The translations under genes and the position numbers were made by a program. A model generated the notes under the pieces. It was given only the letters and a program-made list of their open reading frames with translations, made no database searches and had not been told where the DNA came from. 64,000 bases of DNA. Origin: Promethearchaeota archaeon. Lineage in GTDB: Archaea; Asgardarchaeota; Lokiarchaeia; Sigyniarchaeales; SOKP01. Location: positions 45,907-109,906 of the forward strand of contig JBHLLU010000007.1 of assembly GCA_048938895.1 (NCBI GenBank), read 5' to 3'. Below, one piece after another: positions 14,400-40,286 of this stretch; the stretch's first letter is position 1; each line of letters starts with the position of its first letter.

Positions 14400-15143
14400 T
14401 TATTTATATTCAGATTCATCTACAACCAAATTGGGATCAAGTAATCCTTTTTGAATTTTCCTTAATACATAATTCCTAAATTCCTTGCTTGTGAAATTTC
14501 GAGTTTCAAATTGATTAAATTCCTCTACTTTTTCTCCTGATTTATTATTAATTGTTTCAACATCCCGCATGACATATTCAACCATCGTTGCGCCTAATAA
14601 TATACTAAATAAAAAGGATGAAATTAAAGCAGCATCTTTTTCTTTGATCTCTCCTTTATCAATTGCTTTTTGAATTACGCGAGTAGTTCCTTCCAGATAT
14701 CTAAAGGGCTTATATTCTTTTTCAAATGGTCCTTTTTTTTCTGAGGGAGGAGATCGGATAATGTGCATCATTCGAAAAGCCGCATAATCTTTTTCTGCAA
14801 ATTCAAAAAAGTGTTTAAAAATTTTTAGTAATAAATCAACAGTTGAACCGTTAAAATTCTTAATGATCTCCCGGTTTTCATTCCTGTATTGTTCATAAAA
14901 CTTTTTCCTTATCGCAATCCATAGTTCTCGTTTGCTTTCTACATAATTATAGAGATTATTTTGGCTCATACCTAATTTTCTTGCGAGACCACGTAGTGTG
15001 AAACCATGAAGTCCTTGTTCTTGAAATAATTGTTTTCCTACTTCAAGAATTTCATCAAATTGTTGAGCTTTCTTCTCAGGAGACCTACTTCTTGTTTGTT
15101 TTTTACTATTAATATCGCTTTTTCCATCAATCATTGATTTCAC
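14400..15143 (-). CDS. TetR/AcrR family transcriptional regulator
   Basis: ILEVGKQLFQEQGLHGFTLRGLARKLGMSQNNLYNYVESKREL helix-turn-helix. Confidence 0.92.
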   Translation of the reverse strand: MKSMIDGKSDINSKKQTRSRSPEKKAQQFDEILEVGKQLFQEQGLHGFTLRGLARKLGMSQNNLYNYVESKRELWIAIRKKFYEQYRNENREIIKNFNGSTVDLLLKIFKHFFEFAEKDYAAFRMMHIIRSPPSEKKGPFEKEYKPFRYLEGTTRVIQKAIDKGEIKEKDAALISSFLFSILLGATMVEYVMRDVETINNKSGEKVEEFNQFETRNFTSKEFRNYVLRKIQKGLLDPNLVVDESEYK

Positions 15144-15253: not shown

Positions 15254-16198
15254 ATAGCATCAAAATCTAAAGGTTTAATCTTCAAAATTGAGAGAATGGC
15301 TACTGACGATGGCCCTGGTATTCGTACGACAATTTTTTTTAATTATTGTCCCTTAAATTGCATTTGGTGTCATAATCCAGAATCCATTCCAAAGAAACCT
15401 CAACTTCAATGGATAGATCGTAAATGTATTGGTTGTAATAGTTGTGTAGATGCTTGCCAAGAGAATATCCTATTTTTTGAAGAAGATGGTTTACATATTA
15501 ATAGAGAGAAATGTACTAGTTGTGGAGATTGTGCAGAAGCCTGTCCAAGTACGGCATTAACTATGTGGGGTAAGTGGTGGGATCTAGATATTCTTTTTCG
15601 CGATATTGAGAAAGAAAAAATATTTTTTGATAAAACAAGAGGAGGTATTACCGTTTCTGGTGGTGAACCTACATTTCAAGCAGATTTTCTCTTACAGTTA
15701 TTAAAATTATGTAAGGAAAATGACATTACTACTGCTTTAGATACTTGTGGATATTCAAGTAAAAAAGTTTATCAAGATTTATTACCCTACGTTGATATTG
15801 TCCTTTTAGATATAAAAGTCATTGATCCTAAAAAACATGAAGAATATACGGGTGTTCCAAATAAAATAATTTTAGATAATGCTAAATGGATTTCACGTTA
15901 TATCAAAGAAAATGGAAAAGTTATGTGGATAAGAACACCAATAATTCCTCACTATACTGCAACTAAAGAGAATGTTAAAGGAATTGGAGAATTCATTGTA
16001 AATGAATTAAATAATATTCCTGATCAATGGGATCTATTAAGTTTTAATAAACTATGCGAAATTAAATATTCAAGGTTAGGTCAACCATGGCCTTTAAAGG
16101 ATGAGCCCTTAATGACAAAAGAAGAGATGGAAAATTTTCTTGAAATTGCTAAAAATACAGGTGTCAAAAACGTTAAGTGGTCTGGTTTAACTCGTTGA
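15254..16198 (+). CDS. Glycyl-radical enzyme activating enzyme (radical SAM with 2x[4Fe-4S] ferredoxin insert)
   Basis: DGPGIRTT, CPLNCIWCHNPE, two CxxCxxCxxxC motifs, GGITVSGGEP, DTCG. The conserved N-terminus KGLIFKIER lies upstream of the track ATG (15296); the likely start is ATA at 15254. Confidence 0.92.
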   Translation: MASKSKGLIFKIERMATDDGPGIRTTIFFNYCPLNCIWCHNPESIPKKPQLQWIDRKCIGCNSCVDACQENILFFEEDGLHINREKCTSCGDCAEACPSTALTMWGKWWDLDILFRDIEKEKIFFDKTRGGITVSGGEPTFQADFLLQLLKLCKENDITTALDTCGYSSKKVYQDLLPYVDIVLLDIKVIDPKKHEEYTGVPNKIILDNAKWISRYIKENGKVMWIRTPIIPHYTATKENVKGIGEFIVNELNNIPDQWDLLSFNKLCEIKYSRLGQPWPLKDEPLMTKEEMENFLEIAKNTGVKNVKWSGLTR

Positions 16199-16350: not shown

Positions 16351-18789
16351 TTATATTTCATTGAATACTGTTCTTGCGATAATATCATCCTGAAGTTCTT
16401 TTCTTAGATCTATGAATCGAGCAGAATAACCTGAGACTTTAACGGAAAGATCAGGATATTTCTCTGGATGAGCTTGAGCGTCTCTTAATGTTTCTGAACT
16501 TATTGGATTTATCTGAAGCTCTCGACCTCCCATCTCTAAATAAGCCTCCACTATAGAAGTTAAATGTTCGAGTCCCTCATCTGTTTCTAGTATATTCGGA
16601 TTGATTCTAATATTCATAGTTGCTCCATTCGTTAAATGAGGGTCAGCTGTAGCATAGGCTACTGATCGAAGTGTCATAGTAAGCCCATTCTTTTCCATAC
16701 CGTTTGCAGGAGAAATACCATTTGATACAGGTTCATAGGCTAATCTTCCATCTGCAGTCGCCCCCAATGCTTTACCTTCCATAACTTGTGTTCCGGAAGA
16801 TACAAGACAATTATGATATATACCATCACCGCCTCTTGCTTTATATTTTCTTGTAATATCACATATAGTAGATGCAACCCATTTTGCTAACTCGTCTACC
16901 TTTTCATCACCATTACCGTATTTGGGAGCTTTATTTCGTAATTTTTCTCGAAGTTCTTCCGCCCCCTTGAAATTATTATTCATATGGTTAACTAATTCTT
17001 CCATGCTCACTAATTTCTCTTCAAAAACTGCCCATCGAATTGCTGCTAAGGAGTCTGCGACACCACCAAGTCCTTGAGACCCCATTGGGTTGTTGTTATA
17101 TTTAGCTCCGTTTCTAGTTGCATCCATTCCGCTTTCGAGACATCCTTCTATCGTAGATGATAGCAATGGGGAAGGTAGGTAATCTGCAAATGCTTTATCC
17201 TTTAACTCAGCCTTTTGTACCGTGAGATCTATAGCAAATTTAAGCTGTTCTACATAAGCTTTCTTGACATCTTCAAAAGATTTAAAAGTTTTAGCTGGGG
17301 GTGTTTTCACTCCAACAGTTTTATTTCCTGAAAAAATAGTGCGTCCTTCATTTAATGCCATGTTAAGAAGGATTGAAATCTGAATAGCATTCCCTGCAGT
17401 ATAAGAGAAATCATTACCAGTACCATGGGGTTCCACGCATCCCACAAGTGAATAATCTCTAGCATCCTCTAATGAATATCCAGTATTATGAAGTTGTGGG
17501 ACTAGAACTTCATCATTATGAATGCCCATTCCAGCTGTATATTTAAAAGCTTCAATTGTCCTTTTCAGAAAATTATGGGGTGTCTTGGAAGAAATTCGTA
17601 TTGATATTGTATTTAATAAGCTTTTTACATTTGCAACAGCCTCAAGAAACATGTATGATACATCATTAGTAGCGTCATTTCCATCCTTGTCTAGTCCACC
17701 GATAGTTACATTATTCTGTCCTGCGATAACGACAGAAGCAAGTTTAACTAAATACTCCTCAACGAGTTCTAAAGCTTCTTCATAAGTAATACGGCCTTCG
17801 GCTAAATCAGCGGCATAATATGGGTAAAGATATTGGTCAACGCGTCCTTGAGAAAATATATTTCCTTCACCATAACTCATTTCCATGACGACATTAGTCA
17901 TCCATATTGATTGAAGTGCTTCTATAAATGTTCTTGGTGGAAGGGCAGGTACTCGTCTTGTGCGTTCAGCAATTTCTAAGAGTTCAGCCTTTCTTGTTTC
18001 TGAAGCATTTTCTGCCATTTCCACTGCAAGATCAGCATAACGATTGGAATAATCGCAGGCAGTTCTTGCTGCAACTACGACTGATTCATAAAAATCCTTG
18101 CGTTGGTCATATTTTTCATCAGTCTCCCTGAGTTTCGTAAGCCCTTCTTCTGCCATTTTTTCAATTCCTCTAAATCCCATTTTAAGAACTCGTCTATATC
18201 CAGGAATAACATGTCCTTGACCACTAGCACCTGCAAATATATCAGTGCCGCCCCGAGATCTACCCATAGGACTTAGTTCAGACTCTGCTGTAGTTAAACC
18301 TGCTTTTTCCCAATATTCTCTTTTCCGAGCTGCTACTGTTCTTCCTTTCCAGAAGGGGACGATTTCATTTTTCAACTCATCCATTTCTTCCTTTGGTAAG
18401 GGAAGATATCGATTAAGGAAAGTAAATTTTTTGGCAAACCCATCTCTTATTCTTTTATCTATTGCATCATTAAAGATAAACCCAAAAATACTAGCACGCA
18501 TTCCACGTTCTATTTCAATTGGATCGGCTCTTACCTTACTAGATTTTACACCCACAAGAAGCTCATCGTTCTCAATCCTAATCGGTAAGCGATGTAAGAA
18601 TTCCTCTAATGCTTTAGCATTCTTCATACAGGGCGGAGCATCTTCCATTTGTTTATATATTATTGTATAACACCGAGCTCGTTCAATATCAAGTTCTCTA
18701 GGCATAGAAAGCATTCTATCTCTAATCTTTCGAACCCTCTCGGAAGGAATCCCTTGAAGAGGGGTCATTTTAATACCTTGAACAACCAT
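16351..18789 (-). CDS. Glycyl-radical enzyme, eliminase-type PFL superfamily, substrate unknown (paralog 1)
   Basis: Cys loop LVGCVEP, Gly loop LSVKVSGYSARF, GRVDQYLYPYY, APKYGN, GATADGR. Confidence 0.92.
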   Translation of the reverse strand: MVVQGIKMTPLQGIPSERVRKIRDRMLSMPRELDIERARCYTIIYKQMEDAPPCMKNAKALEEFLHRLPIRIENDELLVGVKSSKVRADPIEIERGMRASIFGFIFNDAIDKRIRDGFAKKFTFLNRYLPLPKEEMDELKNEIVPFWKGRTVAARKREYWEKAGLTTAESELSPMGRSRGGTDIFAGASGQGHVIPGYRRVLKMGFRGIEKMAEEGLTKLRETDEKYDQRKDFYESVVVAARTACDYSNRYADLAVEMAENASETRKAELLEIAERTRRVPALPPRTFIEALQSIWMTNVVMEMSYGEGNIFSQGRVDQYLYPYYAADLAEGRITYEEALELVEEYLVKLASVVIAGQNNVTIGGLDKDGNDATNDVSYMFLEAVANVKSLLNTISIRISSKTPHNFLKRTIEAFKYTAGMGIHNDEVLVPQLHNTGYSLEDARDYSLVGCVEPHGTGNDFSYTAGNAIQISILLNMALNEGRTIFSGNKTVGVKTPPAKTFKSFEDVKKAYVEQLKFAIDLTVQKAELKDKAFADYLPSPLLSSTIEGCLESGMDATRNGAKYNNNPMGSQGLGGVADSLAAIRWAVFEEKLVSMEELVNHMNNNFKGAEELREKLRNKAPKYGNGDEKVDELAKWVASTICDITRKYKARGGDGIYHNCLVSSGTQVMEGKALGATADGRLAYEPVSNGISPANGMEKNGLTMTLRSVAYATADPHLTNGATMNIRINPNILETDEGLEHLTSIVEAYLEMGGRELQINPISSETLRDAQAHPEKYPDLSVKVSGYSARFIDLRKELQDDIIARTVFNEI

Positions 18790-18987: not shown

Positions 18988-21417
18988 TTATAATTCATTA
19001 AATACTGTACGGGAAATGATGTCATTTTGAAGACTTCTACCCACTTCTATAAAACGAGCAGAATAACCTGTAACCTTAACTGATAAGTCAGGGTATTTTT
19101 CTGGATGAGCTTGAGCGTCTCTTAATGTTTCTGAACTTACTGGATTAATTTGAAGTTCTCTTCCTCCTATTTCTAAATAAGCTTCAACAATAGAAGTTAA
19201 CTTATCTACACCCTCTTCTGTTTCTATTAAACTGGGATTGATCCTTATGTTCATTGATGCTCCACCGGTTAGGAGGGCATCTTTTGTCGCGTAAGCTACT
19301 GATCGGAGCGTCATAGTAAGCCCATTTTTCTCTGTTCCGTTTGCAGGAGATATGCCGTTAGAAACAGCTTCACCAGATAATCTTCCATCGGGAGTAGCTC
19401 CTAACATTTTACCCTCAAGTATATTAAGTCCTGAAGATACAAAATATGTGCGATAAATACCAGCACCACCTCTGGCAGGATATTTTCTCACAATATCACA
19501 TAAAGTATTCGCAACCCATATTGCTAGTTCATCTGTCCGTTCATCACCATTACCGTATTTGGGAGCCTTATTTCTTAAAAGTTCTTTAAGTTTCTCTGCT
19601 CCCTTGAAATTATTATTCAGATGCGTAACTAATTCTTCCATTGTTAACAACTTTTCTTCGAATACAGCCCAACGAATTGCTGCTAATGAATTGGTTACGG
19701 TTGCTAATGCTTGACAGCCAATAGGGTTGTTATTATAGAGCGCTCCATTTCGAGTTACATCTTTTCCACTCTCTAGACATCCCTCTATTGTAGATGAAAG
19801 CAAGGGGGAAGGAAAATAATCTGCATATACTTTATCCTTTAGTTCAGCCTTTTTCACCACTAAATCTACTCCAAAGGAAAGCTGGTCTACAAAAGCTTGT
19901 TTCACATCTTCGAAAGTTTTAAATGTACTTGGATGAGGGGTTTTTGCTCCAAATTGGCGGTTCCCTGCTATAATCATTTGTCCTTCGTTTAAAGCCATAT
20001 GTAAAACGGTTGACAATCGAACACCATTACCTGCAGTGTATGAAAAATCAAAACCTGTACCATGAGGTTCTACACAACCTACAAGTGAGTAATCTCGGGC
20101 ATGTTCTAGTGAATAGCCATCTTCTTGAAGCTGTGGTACTAAGATTTCATCATTATGAATGCCCATTCCACCTGTGTATTTAAAAGCTTCAATAGTTCTT
20201 TTCACAAAATCCCGAGGTGTCTTGGAAGAAATCCGTATTGATATTGTATTCAATAAACTTTTTACATTTGCAACAGCTTCAAGAAACATATAAGATATAT
20301 CATTTGTGGTATCATTTCCATCCTTATCTAATCCTCCAATAGTTATATTATTCTGTCCTGCGATAACAACAGAAGCAAGTTTAACTAAATATTCCTCAAT
20401 GGCTTCCAAAGCTTCCTCATAAGTAATCCGTCCTTCTGCTAAATCAGCTGCATAATAAGGATAAAGATATTGATCTACTCGTCCTTGAGAAAATATATTA
20501 CCATTACCATAGCTCATTTCCATGACGACGTTGGTCATCCATACCGATTGAAGTGCTTCCATGAAACTTCTGGGTGGGAGGGAAGGCACTCTTCTTGTCC
20601 GTTCAGCGATATCTAAAAGTTCTGCTCTTCTATGTTCTGGTGCATTTTCAGCCATCTCTATTGCCAGATTTGCGTAACGATTAGAATAATCACAAACAGC
20701 TTTGGAACAAACTTGAACTGCTTCATAAAAAGTCTTGCGATTTTCGTAATCCTCATCATCTTCTTTAAGTTTTTCAAGTTCTTCGATAGCTCGTTTTTCT
20801 ATTCCTTTAAATCCTATTTTAAGAACTCGTTTATACCCTGGAATGGTATGACCCTGCATATTTGCATAAAATGGGTTAATCCAACTCTCAGCTCGTTCCA
20901 TAGAACTCTTTTTCTCCTTGAATAAGCCTGCTTCGATCCAAAGTTTTTCTTTCAGGTCCGTTAATGTCTTCCCTTTCCAAACTGGGATAATATCATTTTT
21001 CAATTCGTCAAGTTCTTCTTCTGTAAAAGGGACATAACGTCTAAGGATGGGATTACGCCTGCGGAAATAATCTTTAGTTTTTTCGTCTATTGAATCATCT
21101 AAAAGAAAATCATATGTTCGAACATGCCTTCCAAGTTCTATTTCAAAAGGATCAGCTCGTATTTTACTGGATTTTACTCCTACAAGAATTTCATCAGTGT
21201 CAATCCTAATAGGGAGGCAGCGCAAAAATTCTTCTAATGCTTTAGCCTTTTTCATGTAGGGATGAGCATCTTCCATCTGTTTCCAAATCCTTGAATAGCA
21301 TCGTGCTCGCTCAAGATCATATTCGAAGGGTTGGGATAACATTTTGTCCCTAATTTTACGAACCCTTTCTGTAGGAATACCTTGAAGTGGAGTCAATCTG
21401 ATATCTTGAACTACCAT
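18988..21417 (-). CDS. Glycyl-radical enzyme, eliminase-type PFL superfamily, substrate unknown (paralog 2)
   Basis: LVGCVEP, LSVKVTGYSARF. Colinear with and highly similar to 16351-18789. Confidence 0.92.
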   Translation of the reverse strand: MVVQDIRLTPLQGIPTERVRKIRDKMLSQPFEYDLERARCYSRIWKQMEDAHPYMKKAKALEEFLRCLPIRIDTDEILVGVKSSKIRADPFEIELGRHVRTYDFLLDDSIDEKTKDYFRRRNPILRRYVPFTEEELDELKNDIIPVWKGKTLTDLKEKLWIEAGLFKEKKSSMERAESWINPFYANMQGHTIPGYKRVLKIGFKGIEKRAIEELEKLKEDDEDYENRKTFYEAVQVCSKAVCDYSNRYANLAIEMAENAPEHRRAELLDIAERTRRVPSLPPRSFMEALQSVWMTNVVMEMSYGNGNIFSQGRVDQYLYPYYAADLAEGRITYEEALEAIEEYLVKLASVVIAGQNNITIGGLDKDGNDTTNDISYMFLEAVANVKSLLNTISIRISSKTPRDFVKRTIEAFKYTGGMGIHNDEILVPQLQEDGYSLEHARDYSLVGCVEPHGTGFDFSYTAGNGVRLSTVLHMALNEGQMIIAGNRQFGAKTPHPSTFKTFEDVKQAFVDQLSFGVDLVVKKAELKDKVYADYFPSPLLSSTIEGCLESGKDVTRNGALYNNNPIGCQALATVTNSLAAIRWAVFEEKLLTMEELVTHLNNNFKGAEKLKELLRNKAPKYGNGDERTDELAIWVANTLCDIVRKYPARGGAGIYRTYFVSSGLNILEGKMLGATPDGRLSGEAVSNGISPANGTEKNGLTMTLRSVAYATKDALLTGGASMNIRINPSLIETEEGVDKLTSIVEAYLEIGGRELQINPVSSETLRDAQAHPEKYPDLSVKVTGYSARFIEVGRSLQNDIISRTVFNEL

Positions 21418-21577: not shown

Positions 21578-23326
21578 TTATTCCACAGATAAACTCTCTT
21601 TAGGTTCTTGAATTTCTGATCGTATCGACGTAGGAGGATTTACACACCAAATATAATGTCCCTCCTCGACTTTTATCCTATGAGGTAATTCAAATTCACA
21701 TTCTTTAGTACGTGCATCTGAAGAGCAGCGTGGATTAAAAGTGCATCCCGGTGGGGGTGCTATAGGACTTGGAACTTCTCCTTTAATAACAAAACTGATT
21801 TCTTGATTGTATGGATCAATGTCAGAATGTGAAGAAAGAAGTGCTTGAGTATACGGATGAGTGGGTCTTTTAAAAACTTGTTCTTTACTTCCAACTTCTA
21901 CAATTTTTCCAAGATACATGACAGCAACACGATCAGCAATATAATTTACAACAGCTAAATTATGAGTAATAAACAGATATCCATACCCATATTGTGCTTG
22001 TAACTCTCTAAGAAGATTGAGTATTTGTGCTTGAACTGATACATCTAGTGCCGAAGTTGGCTCGTCTAAGATAATTAATTCAGGATTACATGCCAATGCT
22101 CTCGCAATAACAATTCTTTGCTTCTGACCACCAGAAAATTCATGCGGGTAGCGATCCATATGCTCTCGTTTTAAGGAAACTTCGTCCAGCAATCTTAATA
22201 CACGTTTTCTGATTTCTATTTTATCTGTAACAGCAAGTAAATTTCTGAGCGGTTCTGCTATTATATCAACTATTTTCATACGTGGATTTAAAGATGCATC
22301 TGGATCTTGAAAAACCATTTGTATCTTATGTCTTAAATAAGCAGAATAATCTGGAGGGATTGATTTATTTTGGAACAACATTTCTCCTTCGGTCTTATCT
22401 ACCAAACCTAGAACAGCTTTAGCAACTGTTGTTTTCCCACATCCACTTTCTCCTACTAAACCCAATGTCTCACCAGTTTTTATGCTAAAAGAGATTCCAT
22501 TAACTGCCTTCACAGCACCAATTTGCCTTTTAAGGGTTCCTTTATAGAGGGGATAGTGTACTTTAAGATCTTTTACGTTAAGTAAAGCTTTATCTTTCTC
22601 AAGAACAGTTAAACCTCTGAGTTCTGTTAGTTCTATGGTTTGGTAAGCTATGAATTTCACAACCACGATAACAATAATTGCTATAATAAAACTAAATAAG
22701 ATATTACTAAAAGCATTCTTAAGAAATTTGTCTTGTTGAGTAATAAAGGTTAATATTAAATAATAGACTCCAGGTGCTATGCTACCAAAAGCAAGAGGTA
22801 TCCTATGTTGCACTAATTGTATTTTATTGCCCCAATAAGCCAGTAAAATAGATAATCCGAAAAGAAAGAGAAAACCTAGAGCAAAAGTAAATTTTGACCC
22901 ATCTAAATCATCATTTCCTTCAATTAGCCAGATATTAAGGATCTTAGGAAGAGCATTTAAAAACAACGATATTACTAGTAAAATACCTTGAATGAATCCA
23001 ATAATTTTGATGGACTCAAAAAAATTTTTATTATAAAATCCCCATAAAACTAATACACCAATAGGGATAAATAGTATTGCATTTACAAAAATCAGTATTA
23101 AAGAGGAATCAATGATAGAATTCAATATAATAAAAGTGAAGACCAATAAAAGTGAATAACCTAATTGAATCAAAGTGAAAAGTAACCAAATAGAATTTAT
23201 TACGAGAGCAATCTTCGTTGAATTCTCCCACATCTTCGATCTTATATAACTTCTCATGATAAAAAATCCAATTATGAATAGAATAACTGGAAAAATAATA
23301 ATTTCAGATATATCAACCATGATCAT
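21578..23326 (-). CDS. oppF: Opp/Dpp ABC ATPase (OppF-like) fused to an N-terminal ~7-TM membrane domain
   Basis: GESGCGKT, FQDP, YPHEFSGGQKQR, LDEPTSALD, HPYT and a Cys-rich C-terminus. The first ~230 aa are hydrophobic helices. Confidence 0.85.
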   Translation of the reverse strand: MIMVDISEIIIFPVILFIIGFFIMRSYIRSKMWENSTKIALVINSIWLLFTLIQLGYSLLLVFTFIILNSIIDSSLILIFVNAILFIPIGVLVLWGFYNKNFFESIKIIGFIQGILLVISLFLNALPKILNIWLIEGNDDLDGSKFTFALGFLFLFGLSILLAYWGNKIQLVQHRIPLAFGSIAPGVYYLILTFITQQDKFLKNAFSNILFSFIIAIIVIVVVKFIAYQTIELTELRGLTVLEKDKALLNVKDLKVHYPLYKGTLKRQIGAVKAVNGISFSIKTGETLGLVGESGCGKTTVAKAVLGLVDKTEGEMLFQNKSIPPDYSAYLRHKIQMVFQDPDASLNPRMKIVDIIAEPLRNLLAVTDKIEIRKRVLRLLDEVSLKREHMDRYPHEFSGGQKQRIVIARALACNPELIILDEPTSALDVSVQAQILNLLRELQAQYGYGYLFITHNLAVVNYIADRVAVMYLGKIVEVGSKEQVFKRPTHPYTQALLSSHSDIDPYNQEISFVIKGEVPSPIAPPPGCTFNPRCSSDARTKECEFELPHRIKVEEGHYIWCVNPPTSIRSEIQEPKESLSVE

Positions 23327-23346
23327 AAATAACCTCTAATTATTCT

Positions 23347-25230
23347 TTATTCTGATAACCTTTCTGCCTTTTGTATAGAAATTCTAGCTAAATCTTCATA
23401 TTCTGGATCATAAAGATGACATGCTACAAAATATCCAGTCTCAACCTCAACTTGGATTGGAATTTTTGAATCACATGGCTCAAAACAATAACGACATCTA
23501 GGATGATATCTACATCCTGAAGGGGGGTAAATTAGATTTGGTACCATTCCAGGAATTACTTCAAGTTTTTGTTGTCTTTTCTTCATAACAGGAACAGAAG
23601 CAATAAGTCCTCTAGTGTATGGATGATAAGGTTTAATAAATAATTTTTTTATATCTCCATATTCAACAATGGATCCGCAATACATCACCGCAACTCGATT
23701 ACACATTTTAGAGATAATTCCAAGATCATGTGTAATAAATAATATAGTTGTATTATATTTCTTACGAAGATCTTTCATCAGTTTCAGAATTTGATTTTGA
23801 ATTGTGACATCAAGTGCTGTGGTAGGTTCATCAGCAATTAATAGCTTGGGTCTACATGCAAGAGCCATCGCAATCTGGACTCGTTGGCGCATACCACCAC
23901 TTAACTCATGTGGGTATCGATCAATAATTACATGAGGAAAGGGGATATTCAATTCCCTTAAAAGATCTATACTCCATTCTCGAGCAATACCGTAAATAGT
24001 TTTATCAGGAAATTTGGAAGCTTCAGCAAGCATTTCATTCTCCATATGTAGTAAGAATACTTCTGAAATTTGCTTACCAATTCTATAAACAGGATTGAGA
24101 GAATTTAGTGGATCTTGAAAAATCATAGTAATTTCTTTACCACGATATTTTAACATTTCATTTTCAGGTTTTATTATTAGATTTTCCCCACCAAAAATAA
24201 CACTGCCTTTTTCAATTTTTCCTGGAGGTCGAATTACTCGAAGAATTGATAATGCGGTTACAGATTTGCCGCATCCCGTTTCACCCACAAGACCAAGAAC
24301 TTCTCCCTCGTATAGCTTAAAAGAAACATTCTCTACAGCACGAACAGTACCCTCTTCGGTGTGGAAGTAAGTAGTGAGATTCTTCACGTCAAGAATCGTA
24401 TGATTCCCTCCTGAAACAAAATCTTGTACAGTTTGCATTTCAGCTTCAACTATTTCAATTGCTCTTTGAACCCTTAACTTGCCTTTTTCCTCGGCTTTAG
24501 GTAAAAATATCTTAATCAAAGATACAAGAAAAATAGCAACATATATATTACTAAAAATTATAAATTCAAAACGAATATCCTGTTTGAATACCATTATTCC
24601 AAGCCATCTGTTTAAATATAACTCAAAAATTATTAGCTGTATTGACCAGATCCCGAATGCAACAAGTCCACCAGTAAACATAGCGTATCTGAGAATTTCC
24701 TTAGAAATACGTTTCTCAATTGGAAGAGCGCTATTTATTAAAATTGTGATACCCATATCAAATAAAATAATTAAAGCTGCCCATATAAAACCTATGTTGA
24801 AAATATCAGGATTACTCATTCTAATTCTCAGAAGAGAAATTGAAAAGAATACACCACAAATTATCCAAGATATTATAATAAAATAATTAAATACTTTTTG
24901 AAATAGATTACTCAAAAAGGGATCTCCTATTGAACCAAATTTTTCCTTTTTAATTACCAGTTCTTTATAAAAGACATTAAACAGAGTTGCCATAAGAGCA
25001 AACATTAAACTATCATTATTCATCATTAAAAATAGAGTAAAATAAGCCCCTATAGTTTCAAGAAAGCTCCGAATACCAAATATTATGAAAAAAACTATGA
25101 TACAAATTACAAGTGAGCTTTTTCTATGAATTGAACGCAAGATTTTTTTGTCTTCAGGGAGATATTTATGAATTAAATTCGAAATAAAGAACAAAATGAG
25201 CATAGCAACGAATGTTTCAATGAAAGCCAT
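23347..25230 (-). CDS. oppD: Opp/Dpp ABC ATPase (OppD-like) fused to an N-terminal ~7-TM membrane domain
   Basis: [45 protein letters not shown]...C...ACH. The first ~245 aa are hydrophobic helices. Confidence 0.85.
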
Positions 25231-25301
25231 CCCATAATTTAATCCTTGACCTCCTTGATATAATATGTTTATAACCTTTTATCCCCTCTTCTCTATACTT
25301 T

Positions 25302-26297
25302 TTATAAACTTAATCGTGGATCCAATGCATCTCGCAGTCCATCTCCTACAAGCATAAATCCTATAGATGTTACTCCTATTAATAGTCCAGGCCAAACAGC
25401 CGCATTGACATTGCTAAATGTAGCTCTTGCCCAATTAATATCAGTTCCCCAACTGGCAACAGTTGGATCTCCAAATCCTATAAAAGCTAAACCTGCTAGA
25501 CCTATTACAGCGACCGCTGCTCCGCCAAAAAATGCTATTATCATAGGGCTAATAGCATTAGGTATAATATGCTTAAACATCACTTTGAACTTTTGCGCAC
25601 CACCTGTTTTTGCTGCTTGAATATATTCTAATTGCTTTACTTGTAACACAAGGGATCGCATAAACCTGGTCCTATATGGTATAAAAAGAATTCCATAAAT
25701 TACAAGACTAGTAAATAATGCTTGTCCCAGTATAGGAACGAGTATGACAACCAGAACCAAATTTGGAAATGCATACATTACATCTACAAAACGCATCATT
25801 AGATAATCTACCGTGCCACCAAAATATGCTGATATCGTTCCTAAGATAAGTCCTCCTCCAATTGAGATGGATACAGGAATTAATGCCATTAAAAATGTGG
25901 TTCTACCACCCCAAATAATTCTTGCTAAAACATCATATCCATATTTTGTTGTCCCTAAAGGATGTTCGGGTGATGGAGAAGCAAATGCAGTTTCTCCAGC
26001 AGGAATATAAGGTATCACTATCTCTTCTATTCTATAGTGAGTTAACCAAGGAGTATATATTGCTAATACCATAATGAATAGGATCATTACCATTCCTGAT
26101 ATTGTTAAAGGTCTCAGAAGGCGTCGAAACATTCTCCTTTTAGATTTTATTTTTTCTATCTGATATTCTTGAGCTGAGAATTCAGGATCTCGCCAACCAG
26201 GAGTTAAATAAAATCTTAAGAATCGAAAAAATTGCTTTTTCCTATCTAATTCAGGCTGTATTTGAATCTTATCCTCAATAAAAGTTTGTTCTGTCAT
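25302..26297 (-). CDS. oppC: Opp/Dpp ABC permease C
   Basis: HPLGTTKYGYDVLARIIWG, EAA-like YIQAAKTGGA, HIIPN, GDGLRDALDPR. Confidence 0.92.
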   Translation of the reverse strand: MTEQTFIEDKIQIQPELDRKKQFFRFLRFYLTPGWRDPEFSAQEYQIEKIKSKRRMFRRLLRPLTISGMVMILFIMVLAIYTPWLTHYRIEEIVIPYIPAGETAFASPSPEHPLGTTKYGYDVLARIIWGGRTTFLMALIPVSISIGGGLILGTISAYFGGTVDYLMMRFVDVMYAFPNLVLVVILVPILGQALFTSLVIYGILFIPYRTRFMRSLVLQVKQLEYIQAAKTGGAQKFKVMFKHIIPNAISPMIIAFFGGAAVAVIGLAGLAFIGFGDPTVASWGTDINWARATFSNVNAAVWPGLLIGVTSIGFMLVGDGLRDALDPRLSL

Positions 26298-26321: not shown

Positions 26322-27398
26322 TTAAGTATATGTTATTCTAGGATCAATAATAGTATACATGACGTCCGCAACTAAATTCCCTGTAAGAAGTATTATGGTA
26401 GAAAATACTAAGAGTCCGTTTATAACTAAATAATCTCCTAAAAATATCGACTCAACCATATAAAAGCCAAAACCTTTATATTCAAAAGTTACTTCAATAA
26501 AAAAAGATCCTAGTAATGCCGTTGCGGTCCCCCCGATAATAAGATTGCTAGTGGGTAATAAAGCATTTCGAAGGGCATGTTTATTTATAACATCTTTTTC
26601 TATAACACCTTTAGCTCTCGCAGTTCTAATGTAATCTTGATCTAAAACATCTAACATACTTGATCGGGTTTGCCTAGTAATAGCGGCCAACGAAACAAAA
26701 GTTACGCATAGAGCCGGAAGAAGTAAATGTTGTAATGTGTCCCATAGATAAATTTGATCATTATAGAGGAAACTATCAATTAAACGAAATCCTGTTTTAT
26801 CCCAAGGCCAAACAAGGTCTGGCTCTGGATATCTCAATCCTGGAGTATTAGCGAAAAATACAGGTAAGTCTAATTTAGTATACGTAAACGTTCCCAAATA
26901 ATAACCAAATAAGAGCTGAAGCAAAGTAGCAATCCAAAACACGGGAAACCCAGCTCCAAAAATTGCAAGAGCTCTGATGAGAATATCTTTTGATTTATCC
27001 TTATGGGTTGCTGATGATAGTCCAAGCTTAACTGCAATGATAGGACTTAATACTATCGGAATTATCATTAATTCTATTGTTCTTGGAAATACTTCTAAAA
27101 TAAAATCGATAACAGGAACATTTTCTCGAATTACATAAGAATTACCCCAATCTCCTGTAAAAAAATTTTTATAATACAAACCCAATTGAACATACCAAGG
27201 ATCATAGAAACCAGCTCTCTCTAATTCGGCTTTAAGCACGTCAAAATCAACTAAGCCACCTAATTTGTTGGTAATTGGGCTTACTTCCATCAAATGCGAT
27301 AAAATCCAGGCAAAAGTTAGAACAAGAAACAACATTGGGATCATCATTAATATCCGTCTGATGATATATTTTATCATATTTGTCTTTTTTTTAACCAC
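26322..27398 (-). CDS. oppB: Opp/Dpp ABC permease B
   Basis: YIIRRIL, DYIRTARAKG, HALRNAL, DVMYTIIDPRI. Confidence 0.92.
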   Translation of the reverse strand: MVKKKTNMIKYIIRRILMMIPMLFLVLTFAWILSHLMEVSPITNKLGGLVDFDVLKAELERAGFYDPWYVQLGLYYKNFFTGDWGNSYVIRENVPVIDFILEVFPRTIELMIIPIVLSPIIAVKLGLSSATHKDKSKDILIRALAIFGAGFPVFWIATLLQLLFGYYLGTFTYTKLDLPVFFANTPGLRYPEPDLVWPWDKTGFRLIDSFLYNDQIYLWDTLQHLLLPALCVTFVSLAAITRQTRSSMLDVLDQDYIRTARAKGVIEKDVINKHALRNALLPTSNLIIGGTATALLGSFFIEVTFEYKGFGFYMVESIFLGDYLVINGLLVFSTIILLTGNLVADVMYTIIDPRITYT

Positions 27399-27629: not shown

Positions 27630-29840
27630 ATGAAAAAATATTCAAAAGGATTAATATTAACTCTTTTTCTTACTTCTATGCTAATACCGTTCTTTCCTAT
27701 TGCAAAAGCTCAAGTCACAGATGTTTTTATTGGAAGCTCCGCCGGACCACGTTCTCTTGCTCACTGGGATAGTCCTACTGCTGTGGTTAGTACTGGCGAT
27801 TATTATGTGGGTGCCACTCTTGAAACATTGTTTCGACCACGAGAACAGCTTTGGGATGGTGGTAATGATGGCGCTGAATTACTTCCAGTACTTGCAACAA
27901 GCTGGGTACTTACAAATAGACCAGATGAAATGAATGAGGATGGTTTTATGAATTATGACGGTGTAGAATCAGTAGAAATAACCCTTCGATCGGGAGTTAA
28001 GTTCCATGACGGTTCAGATTGGAATGCAACAGTATGCAAATGGAATATCGATAGACTTATGACAATTATTGGGAATATTAGTGGTATTACACCAGTAGTT
28101 GATTCAAATATGGGTTCTAGACGAGATACTTTTTGGTTAGAACAAGCTGATTGGGCACCCTATGAAAGCCCCAGTTGGAATGTCACGCAGTATGCGGGGA
28201 AGCCTGGAGAGTATCCAGGATTTGGTACCTCTACTGAATCAAAAATGATGGGTCGCTGGCCCCGATTTTATAATGTAACCATTACACAAGATTTACAATC
28301 GGGGGGGACACTTATAATCCATTTTGGTGACTGGGCCTCTGGTATGAATTATTTATGGGGAATCATCATGATCTCAATGTATTCCTATGGAGCAGACTAT
28401 TCTGATACTGCTATCTTAGGATATGGTCTGACTCCTCCTTTTCTACAACCAGATATTTCTGGTGGCTATCCTACTACAGGATTCCCCGGACACCTCATAG
28501 GTACAGGTCCTTATGTTTTTGAAGAACATGTATCGGATATTGGTACATTACATAGATGGGATGATTGGTGGAATGCTACTGCTCAACAAGCTGAGGGTTG
28601 GCATACAGTTGAGAACGTTGCGTTAGCTACTTTTGCCCACACAGAAGCAGGATATCAGGCTAGAAATACTGCTATGGTTACAGGAGATATTGACTGTGCT
28701 TATGACCGTACTTGGGAACCTGTCAATTATAAAGATATGAAAAAAGCTCCTAATGTAAGATATGTACCTCTTGGCGTTGAAAGTTATGGAGAAAATATAA
28801 TTCTCAATTGTATCAATGAAACGTTTATGTGGACTTGGGCTAATGTCTATCACTTAAATATGAGTTCCTACTATCCTACTCTCAAGGGTGCATTCGTTGC
28901 TTCAGGAGTAATGAATCCAGACGGGACTATGAATGCACATGGAATAAATCGTGCTTTTAGAAAGGCGCTTTCTTATGCGTTTGATTATGATACTTGGATA
29001 CACGTTGCAATGGAAGACCGTGTAGTACGTTCTGGAGGATATCTTTGCACAACAAATCCATATTATAATCCATCCATACCAATTGCTACTCATAACCTCA
29101 CCATAGCACGCCAAGCTCTTTTAGATGATCCATACTGGGGAGCAAAATGTGCTGCTAGAGGTCTTGATGAAAGTAGTTCAGATAGTGATTGGCGGACAGT
29201 AGCAGAGACCAATCCTATTTATAGCATGGAGTATAGTTGGGATGATGCCCATTTAGAATCTTATAGTGTGATGTCGACAAGTCTTACGGATATTGGGTGT
29301 GATCTGGCTGATACCGAAGCTTGGAAAGATGTACCTGATACATACACTAAAATGTCTGCATACTTCACATTTCCTTGGACCATAACTGATGGATTTGCAT
29401 TAAAATTAGGTTATACCCGAGTAGCCAATCTTGGTTACCTTGAAGCCTATTATAAGAGTCCTGCATCTTCAATCTTTCCATATGATCAGTTTTACAATAT
29501 GGGCTTTTGCTATAATACAACATACGATAATGCAATCAAGAAAGTCTGGTTCCAAAATGAAACTGGAGTTCAAGAATCATATGATTTCCTATCTGATTGG
29601 ATTCAGAACTATCAATATCCAACTATTTATTTAGGGAATGATTTGAGGGGGATGGCAATCGCTAAAGACTGGGATTTTAGCTTTTTCTGGGGTGTGTTCA
29701 GGTTTAATTTTATTAAGCCTAGAGAACCGGGTGCGGCACCATTGATCCCAGGTTATTCACTTTGTGTTATTTTACCTGTTGGAATAATGGCTATCTCAGG
29801 AATCGGTTACACAATTATAAGAAAAAAGAAACATGCATAG
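27630..29840 (+). CDS. oppA: ABC substrate-binding protein, family 5 (OppA/DppA-like), with signal peptide and C-terminal PGY-TM-basic sorting signal
   Basis: P.LATSW, LRSGVKFHDGS.WNA, IGTGPY, FRKALSYAFD. C-terminus IPGYSLCVILPVGIMAISGIGYTIIRKKKHA. Confidence 0.88.
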   Translation: MKKYSKGLILTLFLTSMLIPFFPIAKAQVTDVFIGSSAGPRSLAHWDSPTAVVSTGDYYVGATLETLFRPREQLWDGGNDGAELLPVLATSWVLTNRPDEMNEDGFMNYDGVESVEITLRSGVKFHDGSDWNATVCKWNIDRLMTIIGNISGITPVVDSNMGSRRDTFWLEQADWAPYESPSWNVTQYAGKPGEYPGFGTSTESKMMGRWPRFYNVTITQDLQSGGTLIIHFGDWASGMNYLWGIIMISMYSYGADYSDTAILGYGLTPPFLQPDISGGYPTTGFPGHLIGTGPYVFEEHVSDIGTLHRWDDWWNATAQQAEGWHTVENVALATFAHTEAGYQARNTAMVTGDIDCAYDRTWEPVNYKDMKKAPNVRYVPLGVESYGENIILNCINETFMWTWANVYHLNMSSYYPTLKGAFVASGVMNPDGTMNAHGINRAFRKALSYAFDYDTWIHVAMEDRVVRSGGYLCTTNPYYNPSIPIATHNLTIARQALLDDPYWGAKCAARGLDESSSDSDWRTVAETNPIYSMEYSWDDAHLESYSVMSTSLTDIGCDLADTEAWKDVPDTYTKMSAYFTFPWTITDGFALKLGYTRVANLGYLEAYYKSPASSIFPYDQFYNMGFCYNTTYDNAIKKVWFQNETGVQESYDFLSDWIQNYQYPTIYLGNDLRGMAIAKDWDFSFFWGVFRFNFIKPREPGAAPLIPGYSLCVILPVGIMAISGIGYTIIRKKKHA

Positions 29841-36362: not shown

Positions 36363-39300
36363 TTAGGGAACAACAGTTTCCTCATGATAAATCTCAGCAC
36401 CCTCTTCGGTCCGTATAAGGATTACTACTACATCATCTATATCAATAGAAAGTCCGGTAATTGTTTCAAGGTCACTGACTTGGATAGTTATTTTCATAGA
36501 ATCTCCAATCCCAACATTAAAAGCAGCCAAATTACTGCCCGTTAATCGTACCCATGAATTATTGAAGTATGCAAAGAGATTATTTAGAGCTACGTAAGTA
36601 TCGTTTACATAAACAGAATCAAGTGTGACATTAGCCATCCCATTATTAGTAAAGACCAAAGTCATATTTCTGGAGTTATCGACAATTGTATTGACATCGT
36701 CGAGAGTTAGATTGTAATACGCAGAATCTACATAAGCATGTAAAATTTTCCCTGCTTTAGCGGTTGAAGTGGTAGTGACATTGATAACTACTTCATCCGA
36801 TTTGTTTATCATCAAATTGGGAATATCAAATGATACTATTGCGCATTCTTGAATATTTAAGGAAGGCTTTCCATATATATACTTCACATTATCGACGAGT
36901 GTGGAATTTACATAAATTTCGTCAATTGTGACCTCCTTATCTCCTGTATTTTTAATCATTAGTTTTCCTGTTTCATTTGCATAGATAAAGGAAGTTATAA
37001 TACTATCAACGCTGTCGATTATTTGTATATCTGAATCATCTCTAATTGTATGGATATACCCGATATCTGAAGTTACTGTTGTACCGAAACTTCCCGTTAC
37101 GCAAACTAAAATCTCGTCATTAACTTCAAAATTTCCGTAATCTGTTGCATCTATAATAATAACATCCTCATCATTCTTATCCATAAGGAGACTACCACTT
37201 TTAGTATAAAAATCTTCATAATCAACTTCGATCAAAGATTCTGTTAGATATATTGAATCTATCCCGAATATTATGTTCCCAGTATTTTTAACCTTGATTT
37301 TTAAAATGGTACTCTCATTATCGTAGGTAAATCCATGACTCAGGTTAAAATCTAGAGGAATGTGATATCTTTCATAACTATTGAGTGCCACCAACGCTTC
37401 AGGGGATACAATTCTTTCCCTACTTAAAATTGAGAGGGAATAGTTTTCCTTTGTAGATGTAAACAAGACTTCGTCTCTTACATCATTTGGAGTAGCTACC
37501 CCAATTTTATCATAAGTTCGTATTGGATAAAAATTAGTTGCAACATTGGTAATTTGTACTGCGACTTTTTCTCCAGGTCGTAGAATAGAAGAACCACTTA
37601 GGAATTTAACCTTAGTAGGATCTATTTTGTTTTCTATAATATCCTCGTCAAGATAAAATCTTTCTAATACTTCAACAGTATCTCCGATATTTTCAACCTC
37701 AAGATAAATATCCGAATGAGCAGAATCTTTTTGGATTACTTTACTATTCTCTTTATTGATTTTAATAGCTCCTTCTTTAGGTTCTTTTACAAAGAAATTT
37801 TTTGTGCTATTAGAAAATTCATAAGCTCTCCCTGCTAACCCCACTGACTCCGCTGTTACATTAATATTAACGACATCATCTTTCTGAAAATTTGTACCTT
37901 TTGATTTAATATCTACCCATACCATTTCTGATTCCCCACCTTTCAAAATCGCAGTATCCTGGCTTTCACCCATAACAAAATCATATTCCGTTCCATTGAT
38001 ATTTATACTTTTAATAAATAAATCTTTTGTACCTGTGTTTCTCAAATTAAACGTAGCATATCCATTTTCAAAAACCTCGGCATCATTTATGGTGAATTTA
38101 GAATCTAAGATTGTGTAATCAATTTTATAAAGTTTTACTAAGCCTAATGCTGAAATATATGTGGGTATAAATATTTGGAAATTATATATTCCATTATCGG
38201 GAATATGATCCTTCCAAACACCCCCATCCTGAGTAGGGTTGTTAGGATTGTTGATTAAATTAGCATACGTCTTTCTTATGTCTTGATCTTCAAGATCATC
38301 CGGATTTGTAGGAACACCATAAAACATTAACCTTACTAGTTGACTCTGGAACCATTTTGCTCCCATCCTTCCATTATTTGGGTTTTGATATGCACTTTCA
38401 TTAAATACAGAATTAGATGCCCAATTATCTTCCTCCATACCTTGTCTCTTATACCTTTCGTAATTATCATTACAAATTCTTATCATCCAAGGCCACTTTC
38501 CTTCATCTCCACCTAATCCGGTAATCATTAATCCAAAATAGACTAATACATAATCTGCCTTTAATCTACGAAATGCTTTTGCACTATACAGTTCACTTGT
38601 CTGCATTAATGCCATTCCAGTTAAACCGATTCTAGTGGAATTCATGGTGGCATTATCATTTACAGTCGTTACATTCCCGATCGGGGTAAGCCAATATCCA
38701 TAATCCCACCAGGATACGACAACATCGGTACCTTTCAGGTTAGATCTCATCCAAGTTAACGATTCTTCCCAATCATGAACAACTCCTGCGGGAGCAATTT
38801 GAGTAAAAGAAAACTGGTCAATAGCAATATCTGTTGCATGAACAATCTGGGCGACTCCTAAAAATCCAACAACCATAAAAATGGCTACCGTTTCAGGAAC
38901 GCCTACCGATCCTTTTACCTGCCTTCTCCGTTTTCTACTTACCCCTTCTCTCTGTTCACCTATAAAGCTACCAAAGATCTTAAGAACACTTACTAATCCA
39001 TATGCTCCCATTAATGATACTGCAGGAGCAAATATTAAGATGATGCGTATCATACTCCCTGTAAAATAAAACATCAGGATTACAAATGCAATTAAAAATA
39101 TTTCTGATGCATTTAAAATTTTAAAACAAAAGTATATTCCTAGGGGGGTTAATACTAACGGAATTAACGTATTATAGTAAAATACACTCCAAGGACTTGG
39201 CATTTGTTCTGCGACTGATGCTACTAAACTTATTTCATCTCTAAATAAAGGATTCAGAATTGTTTGGAATCGTGATCCAAAACCAAAAGGAATAAGATCA

Positions 39301-40286
39301 GGTGCAACCCATAAAATAATCGCCCCAATTAATATTCCGGGTATAAAACCCCATTTTACAAAATTTATAATACTGTTATATAATGCAGGGTGTTCTGTTT
39401 TTTTGGATTGAATTATGTGAAAAATTACTAAGATTATTGTGAATAAAAAGATTCCACCTGTCTCTAATTCAGAAAATAATGCAGAATAATCAAACTTAGC
39501 ATATAAAGAAAAAATAAGTAAACCAATACCCTCAACTCCAGCATAAGTAATAAGGATATTTTCATTGTATTTATCAGAAAGAATCAAAATAATACTAAGA
39601 AGTGGAATTATTAAATAGACAAACTGATATCCCCCCCAACTTAAAGATAAATATCCTAATGACATACCACCTAGCGCAGAAAACACAAATTTTCCAGTTC
39701 TCATACCTTTTAAAAGAAAGAGAAATGTTAGGAGAGAGGCAAATACTCCTATTGTTTCATTATCAAAAAACCCCGCCATTGTGCGTTGCATATATCCTGG
39801 ATTAAAAGCTAGAAAAAACGCAGCAATTAATCCAGTTCCTCGATCAAGTATTTCTTTTCCTAAAAAATAAATGACTAACACAGTTAATCCACCCATTATT
39901 GCTGGGAAGAAATAACATACATCATACAATGATATTGGGATCCCTAAAAATGTAAGTGTTTTGTGTGTTACAACAACAGTAAAGGTTAAACCGGGGCGTA
40001 AACTTCCACGGTAGAACCCCGTGGGATACCAGCTTTTATAATCACGCCAACTAAAATACTCATAGAGAGTATGCTTATTTAGATATTCTGAGTTATACCA
40101 TTGCATCCAAGGATCAAATGCTTTAATTAATCGTGGACCTCTAAACATAGGGCTAATACGTAATAATATAGCTAAAAACACCACCAAAAAAACTGCGAAG
40201 AAAAACAATATATTCTGGGTTTTAACACTCACTGATGTTCTAATACGATCACGAAAGTTTCTCAATGAAGCAATGATATTTACCAT
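36363..40286 (-). CDS. aglB: Oligosaccharyltransferase AglB/STT3 with long C-terminal beta-rich repeat extension
   Basis: AFDPW, RTMAGFFDNE, SVAEQ, WWDYG, DNAT, GDEGKWPWMIRI, followed by ~570 extra aa. Confidence 0.92.
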   Translation of the reverse strand: MVNIIASLRNFRDRIRTSVSVKTQNILFFFAVFLVVFLAILLRISPMFRGPRLIKAFDPWMQWYNSEYLNKHTLYEYFSWRDYKSWYPTGFYRGSLRPGLTFTVVVTHKTLTFLGIPISLYDVCYFFPAIMGGLTVLVIYFLGKEILDRGTGLIAAFFLAFNPGYMQRTMAGFFDNETIGVFASLLTFLFLLKGMRTGKFVFSALGGMSLGYLSLSWGGYQFVYLIIPLLSIILILSDKYNENILITYAGVEGIGLLIFSLYAKFDYSALFSELETGGIFLFTIILVIFHIIQSKKTEHPALYNSIINFVKWGFIPGILIGAIILWVAPDLIPFGFGSRFQTILNPLFRDEISLVASVAEQMPSPWSVFYYNTLIPLVLTPLGIYFCFKILNASEIFLIAFVILMFYFTGSMIRIILIFAPAVSLMGAYGLVSVLKIFGSFIGEQREGVSRKRRRQVKGSVGVPETVAIFMVVGFLGVAQIVHATDIAIDQFSFTQIAPAGVVHDWEESLTWMRSNLKGTDVVVSWWDYGYWLTPIGNVTTVNDNATMNSTRIGLTGMALMQTSELYSAKAFRRLKADYVLVYFGLMITGLGGDEGKWPWMIRICNDNYERYKRQGMEEDNWASNSVFNESAYQNPNNGRMGAKWFQSQLVRLMFYGVPTNPDDLEDQDIRKTYANLINNPNNPTQDGGVWKDHIPDNGIYNFQIFIPTYISALGLVKLYKIDYTILDSKFTINDAEVFENGYATFNLRNTGTKDLFIKSININGTEYDFVMGESQDTAILKGGESEMVWVDIKSKGTNFQKDDVVNINVTAESVGLAGRAYEFSNSTKNFFVKEPKEGAIKINKENSKVIQKDSAHSDIYLEVENIGDTVEVLERFYLDEDIIENKIDPTKVKFLSGSSILRPGEKVAVQITNVATNFYPIRTYDKIGVATPNDVRDEVLFTSTKENYSLSILSRERIVSPEALVALNSYERYHIPLDFNLSHGFTYDNESTILKIKVKNTGNIIFGIDSIYLTESLIEVDYEDFYTKSGSLLMDKNDEDVIIIDATDYGNFEVNDEILVCVTGSFGTTVTSDIGYIHTIRDDSDIQIIDSVDSIITSFIYANETGKLMIKNTGDKEVTIDEIYVNSTLVDNVKYIYGKPSLNIQECAIVSFDIPNLMINKSDEVVINVTTTSTAKAGKILHAYVDSAYYNLTLDDVNTIVDNSRNMTLVFTNNGMANVTLDSVYVNDTYVALNNLFAYFNNSWVRLTGSNLAAFNVGIGDSMKITIQVSDLETITGLSIDIDDVVVILIRTEEGAEIYHEETVVP

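Follow-up and report, generated by a model that had tools for sequence, protein, structure and literature searches.

A peptide-type importer with extended ATPases

The stretch of DNA analysed here (the window: 64,000 nucleotides of contig JBHLLU010000007.1, positions 45,907-109,906 of the forward strand, from an Asgard archaeon; all positions below are in window numbering) carries the genes of a peptide-type ATP-binding cassette (ABC) importer. On the minus strand these lie in the order OppB-type permease (26322..27398, 358 amino acids), OppC-type permease (25302..26297, 331 amino acids), OppD-type ATPase (23347..25230, 627 amino acids) and OppF-type ATPase (21578..23326, 582 amino acids), and the gene for the binding protein (27630..29840, plus strand, 736 amino acids) is divergent. 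Both ATPases, hereafter D and F, are single open reading frames (ORFs) that begin with a membrane domain, and they represent an Asgard-restricted subfamily of Opp/Dpp-type (PepT) type I importers in which each ATPase has a membrane domain of its own.

The membrane module of D, which we term D-N, comprises residues 1-265 (24436..25230, minus strand) and includes a linker helix at about residues 245-264, as delimited by hydropathy, a structural model and an alignment. Its counterpart in F (F-N) divides in the alignment into a variable part of roughly the first four helices, missing from the short forms found in relatives (residues 1-137; 22916..23326, minus strand), and a conserved core made of the last three helices and a linker (residues 138-245; 22592..22915, minus strand). 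Behind the modules, Pfam and NCBIfam place the ATP-binding domain with its oligo_HPY C-terminal domain at residues 266-627 of D (23347..24435, minus strand) and 246-582 of F (21578..22591, minus strand). An initial annotation of this DNA had described the same two ORFs, of 627 and 582 residues, as holding about seven N-terminal helices in frame with an intact nucleotide-binding domain, and Kyte-Doolittle scans agree, with seven hydrophobic segments in the N-terminal part of each ATPase (the first 245-265 residues).

The ATP-binding domains are complete and of the Opp type. The Pfam domains ABC_tran and oligo_HPY together span residues 300-586 of D (expectation values, E, of 1.5e-27 and 2.4e-20, respectively) and residues 276-536 of F (1.8e-35 and 1.8e-16). 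Among the NCBIfam profiles, residues 279-606 of D match positions 1-313 of the 318 in the OppD profile and residues 244-561 of F match positions 8-323 of the 334 in a Dpp ATPase profile, so that both profiles are covered end to end, yet with scores under their equivalog cut-offs. As the profiles are matched from their first positions at residue 279 of D and residue 244 of F, the ATP-binding domains are whole and the N-terminal parts are additional to them. Walker A, Q-loop, signature, Walker B and H-switch are all intact in the translations of both proteins (for instance GETGCGKS, LSGGMRQR, LLIADEP and ITHDL as Walker A, signature, Walker B and H-switch of D, and GESGCGKT, FQDP, FSGGQKQR, LIILDEP and ITHNL as the five motifs of F), and on these motifs both ATPases are judged to have catalytically intact ATP-binding domains. 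Cysteines are found toward both C-termini, in the pattern C-x5-C-x2-C-x3-C-x17-C in D and C-x5-C-x8-C-x17-C in F. The D pattern (window positions 23347-23500) thus has a fifth cysteine beyond the four that align with the [4Fe-4S] ligand spacing given for Escherichia coli DppD in passages of PMC12136057.

The remaining components of the importer are also present. Both permeases match BPD_transp_1 (E 1e-34 for OppB and 1.1e-29 for OppC, the latter with a weak match to OppC_N), in line with the initial annotation, which had called them complete. OppB contains the sequence YIRTARAKG, an RTA-type coupling-helix motif; the coupling helix of E. coli DppB is labelled "RTA" in passages of PMC12136057. 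The binding protein belongs to family 5 (Pfam SBP_bac_5, E 1.2e-22) and has two hydrophobic segments, one at residues 7-25 (an N-terminal signal or anchor) and one at residues 712-730, a C-terminal anchor followed by a basic tail. This C-terminus (29730-29840) reads PGY, then a hydrophobic stretch, then RKKKHA, and presumably resembles a sorting signal of the PGF-CTERM/archaeosortase type.

Recurrence and selection of the fusion

The fusion is genuine and selected. This conclusion draws on its recurrence across genomes, gap-free contigs, the unconserved methionine at the D junction, conserved linkers and purifying selection. A database search with residues 1-265 of D returned 86 proteins, of which 84 carry ABC_tran and oligo_HPY and the other two are partial records; most are of about 625-645 amino acids, with a subset of about 930-1043, and all of the named ones are from Asgard archaea. 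The corresponding search with F-N returned 20 proteins, every one with ABC_tran. The initial annotation had suggested a survey across Asgard genomes, and there the fusion does recur: D-N was found in 44 of 400 genomes of the phylum (a scan made with a single sequence, with two of the 44 being weak or broken matches), including 39 of the 134 scored in the family of the window and 24 of the 53 in its genus, and F-N, searched as a profile, was found in 46 of the 400, including 26 of the 53 in the genus. Comparison of the two scan tables gives 41 genomes with both. The open frames around the genome matches run to about 425-760 or about 980-1100 amino acids, and stops occur only in a few weak or broken matches.

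The arrangement of the genes recurs as well. Across 49 loci, predicted helices precede the ATP-binding domain in 47 of 47 D-type and 15 of 15 F-type ORF rows, where some rows are the same gene seen twice and some are cut at the edge of the locus, and OppC lies directly upstream of D, followed by OppB and the divergent binding protein, wherever the flanks are long enough. A D-N profile run against 1.84 billion representative proteins gave 67 matches, and all 17 of those with at least 560 amino acids carry the ATP-binding domain; the shorter ones stop within the module or soon after the start of the ATP-binding domain, or else run into unrelated tails. From these sequences it appears that D-N exists only as part of this type of ATPase and that the shorter matches are fragments. 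Distribution is patchy even within the genus of the window, many of the genomes that lack D-N and F-N are more than 90% complete, and several copies are often present where the modules occur. Because of this patchiness within the genus, the subfamily behaves like an accessory trait and not like a core one.

An artefact, whether through mis-assembly, a frameshift, an over-extended gene call or an internal start that would yield a soluble ATPase, is barely conceivable given these data. The one feature in its favour is that D of the window has a methionine at residue 266, just before the ATP-binding domain. This residue is unconserved and is an alanine in the closest relative; neither junction carries a stop or a conserved methionine, the linker sequences are conserved at both, and in dozens of genomes the frame reads through the junction without interruption. 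Contigs from four other DNA runs were aligned to the stretch with no insertions or deletions listed, and single contigs pass gap-free over the junctions at 22298-23854 and 23825-25300 (from a run of a different study), 24109-24525 (a second run) and 22466-22750 (a third). Both junctions, which the initial annotation had singled out for checking, are thus crossed without gaps, and the stop or start between the two parts that it had envisaged as a refutation is seen neither in relatives nor in the contigs of the other runs.

The module sequences also have the marks of coding DNA under constraint. G+C content is about 30% across the open frames of some 250 codons that encode them, and an open frame of that length and composition, conserved in dozens of genomes, is far beyond chance. 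Among 33 pairs of D genes with 80-99.5% protein identity, which are not independent of one another, the ratio of nonsynonymous to synonymous substitution rates (dN/dS) is 0.25-0.67 for D-N as compared to 0.07-0.22 for the ATP-binding domain. The D module is therefore under purifying selection, while the modules evolve two to three times faster than the ATP-binding domains. In a near-identical contig, 14 of the 23 changes falling within the two modules are synonymous (among the 40 of 329 differences listed).

The genome of the window encodes five pairs of Opp-type ATPases, three with membrane modules and two with no membrane part. At the second module-bearing locus, D is a protein of 1067 amino acids (G000:C125:119672-122875; locus L048, 8673-11876) with about 15 predicted helices, made up of two D-N-like modules in tandem of which the one nearer the ATP-binding domain is the more divergent. 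D-type forms of about 930-1100 amino acids are common in relatives. At the third locus, the membrane part of F consists of three helices only. All three module-bearing loci encode binding proteins with a hydrophobic segment at the N-terminus and, at the C-terminus, a hydrophobic anchor followed by a basic tail, and C-terminally anchored family-5 binding proteins are also encoded away from such ATPases in this genome (on contigs C83 and C12). One pair that has no membrane part (G000:C51:63303-65837) consists of two ATPases of 418 amino acids with an insert of about 50-65 residues inside the ATP-binding domain, and no other non-anchored ATPase of the genome is as closely related to the window D domain as the D-type member of this pair.

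Directly downstream of the F ATPase lie tandem genes for two glycyl radical enzymes of about 810 amino acids each (16351-18789 and 18988-21417, minus strand), and beyond them are a radical S-adenosylmethionine/ferredoxin activase-like protein (15296-16198, plus strand) and a TetR-family regulator (14400-15143, minus strand). For the two enzymes, the best named NCBIfam models score 482-489 bits as compared to a cut-off of 1100; these models are the PFL2-3 subfamily and trans-4-hydroxy-L-proline dehydratase. In this organism, what the importer takes up may enter a glycyl-radical pathway. A linkage to such enzymes was considered as a trait of the family and rejected, as no such gene stands beside the transporter at the loci of relatives with wide flanks; the linkage is peculiar to the window locus and informs the substrate at most, not the fusion. 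Elsewhere in the window, an ORF encodes an STT3/AglB-type oligosaccharyltransferase that is unusually long at 1307 amino acids (36363-40286).

Membrane modules and their possible role

AlphaFold2 models D-N as seven long helices (mean predicted local distance difference test, pLDDT, of 78.5), of 21-46 residues each and lacking long cytoplasmic extensions, with the last helix continuing to residue 264. In D-N and F-N alike, lysine and arginine residues cluster in alternate loops, by our own reading of the translations and with no predictor used, and this fits a positive-inside pattern in which the N-terminus would lie outside and the last helix would run inward. An inner C-terminus is also what a cytoplasmic ATP-binding domain requires, and the loop pattern agrees with it. 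The last helix of the module then continues as a conserved cytoplasmic linker helix into the ATP-binding domain.

An alignment of 22 diverse members shows D142, W150, N166, W195, D218, R220 and P244 to be near-invariant in D-N, and the last three helices to be its best-conserved part. The core of F-N is marked by the motifs EGNDDLDGSK, YWGNKIQLV..R (in an inner loop) and PG.YY. In many relatives F-N takes a three-helix form of about 110 residues, which starts at about residue 138 of the window protein and aligns with the last three helices of its F-N, the first four being variable. Helix number therefore differs from system to system, with three, about seven or more in F and about seven, or about 15 in tandem, in D.

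Neither module could be matched to a described family. Pfam gave no significant match for either, the sole match being DUF5056 at E 0.0036, below the cut-off of that family. Profile-profile comparison of D-N with F-N gave a probability of 0.2-0.4%, consistent with the view in the initial annotation that the two have no similarity to each other. That annotation had also seen no EAA permease motif in them and had reasoned that recognisable OppC-type permeases would undo its interpretation. A fusion of permease to ATPase was examined on this account and rejected: Pfam found no BPD_transp_1 in either module, and when the profiles of D-N and F-N were compared with those of OppB and OppC, the probability never exceeded 0.4%. 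An intramembrane protease was likewise rejected, as the alignments hold no invariant histidine, serine or cysteine and no GxGD or HExxH-type motif.

Structural searches gave a similar picture. Foldseek with D-N against the PDB returned nothing at E ≤ 0.001 (best 0.54), and a wide VIA-align search with it gave at best a Z of 8.6 over 104 residues with a root-mean-square deviation of 3.1, a partial helical overlap at noise level. For F-N, the corresponding search had its best match in a designed helical protein (Z of 9.4), which is uninformative at a model pLDDT of 61. Against PDB sequences the D-N profile reached a best E of 0.03 and the F-N profile nothing at E ≤ 1, and in the ESM Atlas there was no usable feature match for either module, the structure rows having template-modelling scores of at most 0.43 by query. 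D-N and F-N are thus two uncharacterised membrane-protein families, which may have new folds.

As the canonical parts are all present and intact, peptide import through OppB and OppC, fed by the anchored binding protein, is what would be expected by default from membership of the family. We infer the peptide substrate from the family-5 binding protein alone. For the modules themselves we tentatively favor a role as accessory "outrigger" domains that pack beside the permeases. In the E. coli complex DppBCDF, DppB pairs with DppD and DppF with DppC, according to passages of PMC12136057, so that OppB is the expected neighbor of a module tethered to D. In the solved E. coli complex OppD sits above OppB, and it is on the outer face of this permease that the D module would then pack, with the F module placed likewise on OppC. 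Each ATPase would in this way be permanently tethered to the translocator, conserved loops would be added on both faces of the membrane, and the resulting complex would have about 26 membrane helices.

A complex prediction for OppB, OppC and D-N, with an alignment for each, points in the same direction with what the method calls "weak support". The score was 0.48 (runs of 0.48, 0.51 and 0.47), as compared to 0.00 for the best of three controls, including one in which OppB was replaced, with 100% contact agreement among the three runs and a partner pLDDT of at least 69. Of solved complexes, 116 out of 157 attain the mark applied, as do 2 out of 215 mismatched pairs; scores of 0.60 or less account for only 18 of those 157 and for both of the mismatches that pass. 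The variable number of helices and the faster evolution of the modules are also more in keeping with packing than with catalysis or translocation. Of the roles that the initial annotation had offered (sensors, scaffolds or a secondary transport path), the scaffold thus gains some support from the weak pass of D-N with OppB and from the variable, faster-evolving helices, and the same variability makes the secondary transport path less likely.

Several observations weigh against packing beside the permeases as the role of the modules. Passes in this weak band are wrong in the majority of cases, except where the guess had been a likely one from the start, and the prediction reported no interface. 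The AlphaFold2 model of F-N is poor, with a pLDDT of 61. The conserved polar residues lie on both sides of the membrane, with D142, D218, R220 and the QDIR motif at the predicted outer face and N166 at the inner end of helix 5 of D-N, and F-N keeps an acidic outer loop and a basic inner one; this polar conservation exceeds what a passive anchor needs and could point to contacts with a ligand, with the binding protein or with a regulator. Two Opp systems with soluble ATPases coexist in the same genome, and ordinary Opp systems work without such modules, so the benefit of a mere anchor is not obvious. The conserved polar residues on both faces, together with the conserved linkers, keep alive the readings in which the modules sense, dock or form a second pathway.

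The modules might, for instance, sense the state of the lipids, the membrane potential or an external ligand and gate ATP hydrolysis through the linker helix, much as C-terminal regulatory domains do in the importer ATPases MalK, MetN and OpuA. We consider such a regulatory sensor unlikely but credible: conservation extends to the linker helices that join the last membrane helix to the ATP-binding domain, purifying selection acts on the modules, and the charged D142, D218 and R220 of D-N and the acidic loop of F-N stand conserved on the outer side. Against this, the modules resemble no known sensor domain in Pfam, in PDB sequences or in folds, they are unrelated to each other, and F-N is down to three helices in many systems, which would be odd for one shared sensing mechanism. 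Somewhat less likely is a docking role, in which the modules would keep the cognate binding protein, by its C-terminal anchor or by its body, near the translocator and so mimic the covalent fusion of binding domains to permeases in some Gram-positive importers. In favor of docking, the binding proteins at all three module-bearing loci of the genome are anchored, and polar residues conserved in D-N and F-N lie on the predicted outer side; against it, C-terminally anchored family-5 proteins are also encoded away from such ATPases, on C83 and C12.

Alternatively, D-N and F-N together might form an additional ATP-driven translocation path, or act as enzymes themselves. In the order of their parts the two ATPases agree with ABC exporter half-transporters, in which a membrane domain is followed by an ATP-binding domain, and modules of no known fold leave room for an unrecognized activity. 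We nonetheless find this very unlikely, given that D-N and F-N are not homologous, that helix number ranges from three to about 15, that no histidine, serine or cysteine hinting at catalysis is invariant in the alignment, that the helices of 21-46 residues lack long cytoplasmic extensions of the exporter type, that Pfam finds neither an ABC_membrane nor an ABC2 domain, and that constraint on the modules is relaxed relative to the ATP-binding domains. In a broader form of these proposals the modules would be working parts, with ATP-driven closure of the OppD/OppF dimer transmitted via the linkers so as to couple uptake to a second event in the membrane: the transporter might be gated by a signal from outside or from the membrane, the anchored binding protein might be handled, or a second substrate might be moved. 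This too we hold to be quite improbable; if true, these systems would make up a functional class of their own, new among type I ABC importers and restricted to the archaeal lineage closest to eukaryotes.

Known transporters compared

The ATPases of type I ABC importers are, in textbook form, soluble subunits held only by coupling helices, and a fusion of the kind found here is apparently undescribed. Full-text literature searches found no description of it, as the initial annotation had supposed in stating that no example was known, though the proteins themselves are abundant in databases under a generic label. The passages returned from a survey of Asgard transporters (PMC7997004) mention none, though its supplements could list these proteins. 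Public databases hold thousands of them, with no label beyond "ABC transporter ATP-binding protein". The D ATP-binding domain is matched by at least 7,989 database proteins with a length of 635 amino acids or more, and the best 120 of these, at 73-87% identity, are all of this type and from Asgard archaea wherever named; as the search was filled by such close relatives, it says nothing on analogous fusions in other lineages. What we describe is hence an abundant and conserved subfamily that builds two new families of membrane module onto both ATPases of an importer, and the initial proposal of a type I importer with two additional membrane modules is borne out as a real, conserved and selected architecture. 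Should the modules serve to stabilize the transporter, to regulate it or to extend it, ABC importers would be known in a wider range of designs, and the finding would bear on how nutrient uptake is organized in peptide-fermenting Asgard archaea, in which binding proteins can be the most abundant proteins according to passages of PMC11284389.

With respect to parts, the ABC exporter half-transporters (type IV) offer one likeness, as they too have an N-terminal membrane domain and then an ATP-binding domain in one polypeptide. The ATP-binding domains here instead carry oligo_HPY and belong to the importer Opp type, the permeases are proteins apart and have coupling helices, there is no Pfam ABC_membrane domain, and the helices are short, with no long cytoplasmic extensions. 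The fold searches returned no exporter above noise, although absence from such a list leaves an exporter fold possible. A second likeness is to MalK, MetN and OpuA, importer ATPases extended by a non-catalytic domain that could modulate activity. The C-terminal domains of MalK and MetN and the CBS domains of OpuA are soluble and C-terminal, whereas the modules of D and F are embedded in the membrane, N-terminal and present on both ATPases.

The closest comparison is with the Opp/Dpp systems themselves. OppD- and OppF-type ATPases are usually soluble proteins of about 320-350 amino acids, whereas those of the window have 627 and 582 and carry additional N-terminal polytopic modules of about 265 and 245 residues; the binding protein here is, unlike that of Opp/Dpp, anchored at its C-terminus. 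As in the PepT family (Transporter Classification 3.A.1.5), exemplified by E. coli DppABCDF in passages of PMC12136057, there are five components: a binding protein of family 5, a pair of BPD_transp_1 permeases whose cores have six helices, and two distinct ATPases with ABC_tran and oligo_HPY, both with a four-cysteine pattern resembling the [4Fe-4S] sites of DppD and DppF. Judged by the sequences of its components, the window system is an Opp/Dpp (PepT) importer that departs from one customary feature of the family, the soluble ATPase of about 330 amino acids.

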